From NCBI RefSeq assembly GCF_003334815.1, contig NZ_QOWO01000131.1: 391 bases of DNA; one strand, written 5' to 3'. Every line of letters starts with the position of its first letter. The stretch's first letter is position 1. The stretch is from Escherichia coli (GTDB lineage: Bacteria > Pseudomonadota > Gammaproteobacteria > Enterobacterales > Enterobacteriaceae). A model generated the notes under the pieces. The model saw only the letters and a list, made by a program, of their open reading frames with translations. It did no database searches and was not told the DNA's origin. The position numbers were made by a program, and so were the translations under genes. Shown here in pieces: positions 253 through 391 of the stretch.

Positions 253-281
253 TTGCCTCCCTGCAAAGAAGAGACTAACAT
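253..281 (+). promoter_or_regulatory. Candidate sigma70 promoter for an antisense Sok-like RNA (-35 TTGCCT 253..258, 17-bp spacer, -10 TAACAT 276..281)
   Basis: Both hexamers match consensus 4/6 with optimal 17-bp spacing. The -35 overlaps the toxin RBS on the opposite strand, which is the arrangement I recall for the plasmid R1 sok promoter relative to the hok RBS. Predicted transcription start is near 288..289. Confidence 0.35.
256..260 (-). promoter_or_regulatory. Shine-Dalgarno sequence (GGAGG) for the hok-like toxin
   Basis: Minus-strand GGAGG lies 6 nt upstream of the toxin ATG (sequence gcagGGAGGcaagacATG). Confidence 0.7.
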
Positions 282-287
282 TCGAAT

Positions 288-391
288 TGTTTGGGTTCGA
301 ACGTAAGCCTCAGGTTGTACTGACCCCAAAAAGTTGGACAGTTAAACACGAGGCATATAGGTCTGATTCCGATATTCAATTGGAGTCAGAC
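288..391 (+). ncRNA. sokE: Candidate Sok-like antisense RNA (antitoxin), complementary to the toxin mRNA leader; 3' end not defined
   Basis: Inferred from the candidate promoter and hok/sok locus architecture. The transcript would be antisense to the toxin leader and could end at the 361..391 stem-loop, but no U-tract is visible because the window ends there. Extent is speculative. Confidence 0.25.
361..391. repeat. Inverted repeat forming a 10-bp stem with 11-nt loop (GTCTGATTCC / GGAGTCAGAC)
   Basis: 361..370 pairs with 382..391. On the + strand RNA there is one G-U wobble; on the minus-strand RNA one A-C mismatch. It lies in the toxin mRNA leader and the candidate antisense RNA region. 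The window ends at the stem, so downstream context is unseen. Confidence 0.6.

Follow-up and report, generated by a model that had tools for sequence, protein, structure and literature searches.

The type member of the hok/sok family is the parB system of plasmid R1, a post-segregational killing system in which the -35 hexamer of the sok promoter lies over the Shine-Dalgarno (SD) region of hok and the -10 hexamer lies opposite the dcb arm, with a 17-nt spacer between them. The mechanism of R1 hok/sok and its tac/ucb and fbi elements are defined in PMC9841398, and according to Le Rhun et al. (PMC9841398) a mutation that inactivates the R1 Sok promoter maps to the dcb box of hok mRNA. Chromosomal relatives are also known. 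The annotation of Escherichia coli K-12 MG1655 contains the ncRNA gene sokX (59 nt), the +1 of which is a curated coordinate, and the SokX RNA has been detected in K-12 under all conditions tested, without differential expression (bioRxiv 10.1101/2024.06.20.599902). In a 2025 survey, hok together with sokX was found next to cysH in about 90% of uropathogenic strains, and K-12 was listed as having sokX only (PMC12736100). The closest paralogue of the locus considered here is hokE/sokE of K-12, whose curated sokE RNA (60 nt) begins at a G located 7 nt after TTGCCT-17-TACCAT. This hexamer pair is an in vitro binding site of the RpoD holoenzyme in the ybdK/sokE spacer (Shimada et al., PMC3946193); the main-text tables of the same study give no such site at the cysH/cas3 spacer. 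Loci of this family are also targets of the insertion sequence IS150: recurrent insertions adjoining hokC, hokE and mokB have been described in evolved derivatives of E. coli B REL606 (PMC5419217), and XL1-Blue as well as over 400 natural isolates are reported to carry sokE::IS150.

The window analysed here, that is, the whole stretch of 391 nt, is 100% identical to positions 2774120-2774510 of REL606 (NC_012967.1) and is composed of three parts, namely an IS421 end (1-77, +/-2), a hok/sok fragment (about 78-315) and an IS150 end (316-391). It is part of the chromosomal hokX/sokX type I toxin-antitoxin locus, located between cysH and the cas3/iap side. When IS150 was taken out in silico and a single GGT copy was retained, a continuous hok/sok sequence was restored, and a search with this IS150-free sequence retrieved the uninterrupted locus at 94-100% identity from 4147 of 5426 complete E. 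coli genomes; in the examples inspected, cysH adjoins it. A 100-nt query spanning the junction was covered at 80% or more in 868 genomes. In REL606 the hokX/sokX system is broken, IS150 interrupting the terminator hairpin of SokX in its 5' arm and IS421 truncating the 3' untranslated region (UTR) of hok. Within this broken locus, positions 253-281 are very probably the sigma-70 promoter of the SokX antisense antitoxin RNA (Table 1).

Table 1. Features of the 391-nt window and the IS150 insertion sites compared with it. Positions are those of the window unless prefixed by L001 (REL606 locus) or by the handle of another locus.
Feature	Position	Strand	Basis or remark
IS421 right end (IS186-like)	1-77 (boundary +/-2 nt)		100% identity in unrelated plasmids; RefSeq; adjoins IS421 transposase
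hokX toxin ORF, 50 aa	97-249	-	ORF; Pfam HOK_GEF; RefSeq WP_000956460.1 'Hok/Gef family protein', identical in intact loci
-35 hexamer TTGCCT, sokX promoter	253-258	+	Identical in K-12 upstream of curated sokX; invariant in 51/51 loci
hokX Shine-Dalgarno GGAGG	256-260	-	Read from sequence; 3-nt overlap with -35
Spacer, 17 nt	259-275	+	17 nt in 51/51 loci, also in sokE, the R1-type locus and R478
hok-leader stem-loop (mok-SD/dcb stem; Sok target)	271-311, loop CCCAAACAA at 295-287	-	Rfam RF01794 structure; covariation in 51 loci
-10 hexamer TAACAT, sokX promoter	276-281	+	T1, A2, A5 and T6 invariant in 51 loci
Predicted SokX transcription start, G	289	+	7 nt after -10; aligned with first base of curated K-12 sokX
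Remaining SokX 5' 27 nt: single-stranded recognition tail and start of terminator-hairpin 5' arm	289-315	+	Alignment with K-12 sokX and intact loci
GGT target-site duplication of IS150	313-315		Second copy at L001 5259-5261
IS150 right end (element of 1443 bp, L001 3816-5258)	316-391	-	Matches IS150 elsewhere; RefSeq; terminal inverted repeats; no Rfam signal
Terminator-like hairpin in IS150, 15-bp stem followed by UUUAAUUU	359-391, stem to window-equivalent 393; L001 3893-3903	+	Predicted
IS150 site, hokX of REL606	313-316		GGT duplication
IS150 site, hok of plasmid R478	L002 2826-2831		GGT duplication
IS150 site, hokE of strain AVS0662	L065 1748-1753		GGA duplication
IS150 site, hokB of strain CRECJHTL34	L066 ~1744-1749		

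A preliminary description of the window had drawn attention to TTGCCT and TAACAT on the + strand, separated by exactly 17 nt and matching the consensus at only 4 of 6 positions each. Both statements are accurate, the elements falling at 253-258, 259-275 and 276-281 and the matches being counted against the sigma-70 hexamers TTGACA and TATAAT; the total of 8/12 is weak, and the TG of an extended -10 is absent from the promoter. The distances are those of a sigma-70 promoter, with 17 nt between the hexamers (16-18 allowed) and 7 nt from the -10 to the aligned curated start (5-9 allowed). The motif itself carries little information. Sites with at least 4/6 matches in each hexamer and a 16-18-nt spacer numbered 4 in the window versus 3.55 +/- 1.9 in 500 dinucleotide-preserving shuffles; when TAnnnT was additionally required, 2 sites remained versus 0.77 expected, and a stricter scan of the window (at least 9/12) did not report TTGCCT-17-TAACAT. 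An expectation of 0 for the exact pattern is trivial, the pattern having been drawn from the window sequence itself. Motif statistics were therefore rejected as support, the bare hexamer pair being not above chance in the shuffles and in the 9/12 scan, and what significance the pair has must lie in homology and conservation only. The sole site returned by the 9/12 scan (expected 0.4 +/- 0.7) was a different promoter-like sequence, CTGACA-17-AATCAT (9/12), at 246-218 on the - strand, which is the hok strand, within the 5'-terminal part of the hok ORF.

Homology is provided by K-12, in which identity with the window extends over positions 247-303, corresponding to 42 nt of sequence before sokX (247-288) and 15 nt at the 5' end of the RNA. 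The preliminary description had expected a start near 288, and the first base of curated K-12 sokX, at U00096.3 2887353 on the + strand, aligns with G289, which is position 2774408 of NC_012967.1. The alignment columns also coincide with the promoter positions of R1-type sok and of sokE. The proposal of a Sok-like antisense promoter is thus borne out by the identity with the region upstream of curated K-12 sokX and by the invariance of the sigma-70-critical positions in 51 loci, although what had been offered as a fresh prediction concerns an RNA that is already an annotated gene in K-12.

The conservation data come from 51 distinct loci of about 15 enterobacterial genera, which were collected via the toxin protein only, the antisense region not being used for selection. 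TTGCCT and the spacer length of 17 nt were kept in every one of them, and so was a -10 of the form TA[AC][CT]AT (TAACAT in 38, TACCAT in 7 and TACTAT in 6 loci). A G is aligned to the sokX start in 49 of the 51 loci, and the distance from the -10 to the start position is 7 nt in 47 loci and 6 nt in 4. The flanks, in contrast, are variable: the frequency of the major base is 0.69-0.94 at 250-252, where indels also occur, 0.57-0.73 at 284, 286 and 287, and 0.37-0.69 at 290-293.

Two other explanations for the hexamers have to be set against these data. According to one, the pair is a chance match that has no biological role, which fits the 4 equal-or-better sites in the window (3.6 expected) and the failure of the 9/12 scan to return the site. 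However, the hexamers, the spacing and the start are fully conserved across genera, and the region is identical to that upstream of a curated and expressed RNA, K-12 SokX; we regard the probability of a chance match as practically nil. According to the other, the hexamers are kept solely because the toxin mRNA needs its SD, its dcb arm and the start codon of a leader ORF; their likeness to a promoter would be accidental, and the real Sok promoter would be located elsewhere. The two genes do share sequence here, with 3 nt of the -35 overlapping the SD and the -10 located within the 3' arm of a stem with real covariation, and a weak 8/12 motif is expected by chance. Since stem pairs outside the hexamer covary, the leader stem-loop is real and tolerant of change (298-284 is GC in 27 and AU in 20 of the 51 loci, 299-283 CG in 38 and UA in 8, 296-286 AU in 33 and CG in 8, and 310-272 AU in 40 and GC in 7). 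Yet while these neighbouring pairs covary freely, T276 and A277, which are unpaired in the Rfam structure, are kept in 51/51 loci, and T281 is invariant although its pairing partner at 301 varies and the pair is kept in just 29 of 51.

The remaining mRNA features do not account for the pattern either. TTG (253-255) is invariant, whereas the other positions of the SD-ATG spacer vary in both sequence and length; the conservation of CCT (256-258), which is shared with the toxin SD, is not attributable to the promoter alone. The AUG opposite the -10 shares the reading frame of hok in 16 loci and lies in another frame in 28, and 6 loci lack it; it was rejected as a conserved mok start, neither its frame nor its presence being conserved in the 51 loci. 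In addition, the curated +1 of sokX and that of sokE are both found 7 nt after the corresponding -10, and no other hexamer pair is present at a workable distance from the curated sokX start. Hence, we consider an origin of the hexamers in mRNA constraints alone very improbable, and the pattern of hexamer conservation is that of a promoter constraint acting on the DNA.

With 253-281 taken as the sokX promoter, a single DNA stretch would serve both genes, the promoter lying opposite the toxin SD with its -35 and opposite the dcb arm of the leader stem with its -10. The -35 had been described as directly opposite the toxin SD; this is correct for the 3-nt overlap at 256-258, but not for TTG at 253-255, which sits in the SD-ATG spacer. 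In intact loci, RNA polymerase would start at the G equivalent to position 289 and produce a SokX of about 59 nt, which is predicted to fold into a 5' tail, a GC-rich hairpin and the U-tract UUUUGU (-24.7 kcal/mol, z=-4.6). The 5' tail, GUUUGGGUUCG, would be able to pair with the complementary loop of the hok-leader stem-loop. By analogy with R1, we infer that this pairing would block translation of the leader, on which translation of hok depends, and that the duplex would be marked for cleavage by RNase III.

In REL606, a complete antisense RNA gene of about 60 nt, with tail, terminator hairpin and U-tract, is absent; it is present in the reconstituted or intact locus. The preliminary description had expected a transcript from about 288 to be fully complementary to the toxin leader and had implied a small RNA gene over 288-391. 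Neither expectation survives, as 316-391 is the right end of IS150 and not leader, and the promoter is followed by no more than the first 27 of the 59 nt of SokX (289-315). The remainder of SokX, TGATAGAAATATCGCCTGGGGCTTTTGTCCAT, is located at L001 5262-5293, on the far side of IS150.

The toxin ORF is intact in E. coli B, as seen in REL606. Its product matches Pfam PF01848 (HOK_GEF) over the full length of the model (1-42 of 42, E=3.5e-11). The NCBIfam scores are 57.7 bits for the HokA equivalog (cut-off 89) and 41 bits for the Hok subfamily (cut-off 73), and because both are below the cut-off, no named Hok subtype was assigned. A frame upstream of hokX (243-282, - strand) ends at a UGA that overlaps the hok AUG (AUGCUGA), and downstream of the GAGG at 311-308 the hokX leader has no canonical start codon. 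The dcb arm in the window contains the complement of TAACAT. The long-range fold-back elements are absent from the hokX fragment, the 5' tac/ucb elements having been displaced by IS150 and the 3' fbi element removed by IS421.

The Rfam family RF01794 scores 41.6 bits on the window, under its gathering score of 59 bits. Positions 234-315 alone reach 43.3 bits (model 80-157) and 316-391 alone give no signal; the score rises to 113 bits for the intact orthologue and to 103.7 bits for the remnant in K-12. A toxin leader running to position 391, as the full-window match (391-234) would have it, was rejected, since 316-391 is IS150 and adds no score, and weak Rfam matches to mir-101 and Ocean-VII (E=0.5-0.7) were dismissed as chance. 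At the K-12 locus (L005), the RF01794 'sok' match at 2800-2956 is on the - strand, opposite the curated sokX at 2854-2912 on the + strand, and spans 157 nt, with its limits about 165 nt upstream and a few nt downstream of the hok start codon. RF01794 therefore describes the toxin mRNA leader and not the antisense RNA of about 60 nt, and automatic annotation from this family would put 'sok' on the wrong strand.

The two insertions that disrupt the locus can be described precisely. Sequence 316-391 is found in many unrelated plasmids and chromosomes as IS150, the transposase gene of which (L001 3842-5211, - strand) ends at position 342 and is oriented toward hok. The element is inserted 27 nt past the SokX start and interrupts the 5' arm of the terminator hairpin; the 3' part of this hairpin with its U-tract, as well as the hok promoter and the 5' leader (tac/ucb), is thereby moved 1443 bp away, beyond IS150. 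On the other side, IS421 is inserted 21 nt past the hok stop codon and has removed the hok 3' UTR with fbi, which is cut at position ~77; an assignment of 1-96 to a hok 3' UTR with fbi was rejected, 1-77 being the IS421 end. IS421 (L001 2237-3578) lies in a GGGGG...CCC motif; IS186B after K-12 hokE and IS421 after hok of plasmid R478 occupy the corresponding site. In REL606 the two flanks of IS421 do not form a direct repeat. Strain 120899 has cas3 adjoining hokX, but this gene is absent in REL606, where a CRISPR repeat region and iap are found on the other side of IS421. These features suggest that the REL606 genome has lost the cas region through a deletion associated with IS421.

The position of IS150 is not peculiar to REL606. 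In four divergent hok/sok loci, the IS150 copies share their orientation and, within 1-2 nt, their position in the Sok terminator hairpin, namely in its 5' arm, which indicates an IS150 insertion hot spot. The identical flanks of the R478 plasmid locus and of hokX could be taken for one shared ancestral structure; this was rejected, because the flanks are no more than the pair of IS elements, the cores have diverged and each IS150 is bounded by a separate GGT duplication within the Sok hairpin of its own locus. In the literature on recurrent IS150 insertions in hok/sok loci, no explanation was found for the specificity of site and orientation. If true, orientation-specific targeting of the Sok stem by IS150 across at least four paralogues would point to a structure- or sequence-directed mechanism of insertion.

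What becomes of the promoter after these insertions is a separate question. As its sequence is intact, we infer that the sokX promoter most likely still fires in REL606. A transcript starting at G289 would become antisense to IS150 after 27 nt. The terminator scan reported a single terminator-like site in L001 3700-5400, the hairpin at 359-393 (1 found versus 1.6 expected in shuffles), and the predicted product would be a SokX'::IS150 chimeric RNA of about 105-112 nt, probably ending near position 393-400; this RNA and its 3' terminus are both predicted on the basis of a simple terminator scan. The hairpin is antisense to the 3' end of the IS150 transposase gene and would terminate transcription that enters IS150 from outside. 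The same scan found no terminator on the - strand between the transposase gene and the hokX ORF, and a read-through hok message lacking ucb and fbi is therefore possible. Taken furthest, REL606 and the genomes with the same junction might produce a stable RNA of about 105-112 nt, composed of 27 nt of SokX and antisense IS150 sequence, which still silences hokX on IS150 read-through and maybe acts as an antisense regulator of the 3' end of the transposase; we judge this improbable and put it forward as a conjecture.

It is possible, if on the unlikely side, that the promoter is instead a dead relic in REL606, from which no stable or functional RNA is made, and that hokX is silent for lack of its own promoter. 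The SokX terminator hairpin and the hok promoter have after all been displaced by 1443 bp and the hok 3' UTR has been lost to IS421; similar IS insertions in the hok loci of K-12 have been described as putatively inactivating, and K-12 sokA and mokA, split by IS150, are annotated as pseudogenes. On the other hand, the promoter sequence does not differ from that preceding the K-12 sokX gene, whose RNA has been detected, and initiation should therefore persist; a strong hairpin with a U-tract is present about 105 nt downstream on the same strand; and the transposase gene is oriented toward the intact hokX ORF, which makes read-through hok transcripts possible.

In E. coli B, as shown for REL606, the hokX ORF is intact, but IS150 and IS421 have removed the antitoxin RNA gene, the hok promoter and the fold-back elements or separated them from it; annotation of the locus should therefore record a disrupted module and not a working toxin-antitoxin pair. 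The element is the already known sokX, in an IS-disrupted state of a known kind, and the value of the analysis is mainly for annotation and little as a discovery: SokX is annotated, its promoter has the textbook layout of R1 hok/sok and disruption of sok by IS150 is documented.

Among the known systems, sokX of K-12 MG1655 (b4701) is the orthologous locus and is likewise located beside cysH, but in K-12 the hokX ORF is lost and sokX is complete, whereas in REL606 the hokX ORF is kept, IS150 interrupts sokX after nt 27 and IS421 takes the place of the 3' UTR. The paralogous sokE and SokX have the hairpin loop TTGATAGAAATATC in common, and the IS186-family element IS186B after the hok stop codon of K-12 hokE occupies a site equal to that of IS421 after hokX. 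In contrast to the locus described here, hokE/sokE is located between ybdK and entD, differs by many substitutions, has an intact sokE in MG1655 and carries a 4-nt insertion between SD and ATG, which in hokE-type loci puts the upstream AUG in frame with hok. The R1 system, which matches RF01794 at 87.2 bits, resembles hokX/sokX in its promoter layout and in an antisense RNA with a 5' tail and a terminator hairpin, as in SokX, and the R1-type locus has TTGCGC-17-TATCCT in the columns of TTGCCT-17-TAACAT. The hexamers differ, however, as does the R1 toxin (52 aa), which is divergent from the hokX product, and the R1 mok frame overlaps the hok coding sequence, whereas the frame upstream of hokX ends at the hok start codon; hokX/sokX is a chromosomal copy, unlike the plasmid-borne R1 killing system. 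The hok locus of plasmid R478 likewise has a spacer of 17 nt. As for the insertions, the IS150 of K-12 hokA is in the opposite orientation, nearer to the hok start and without a target duplication, unlike the IS150 of hokX, while in the one copy of sokE::IS150 examined the element has the same hairpin position and orientation as in REL606 sokX.
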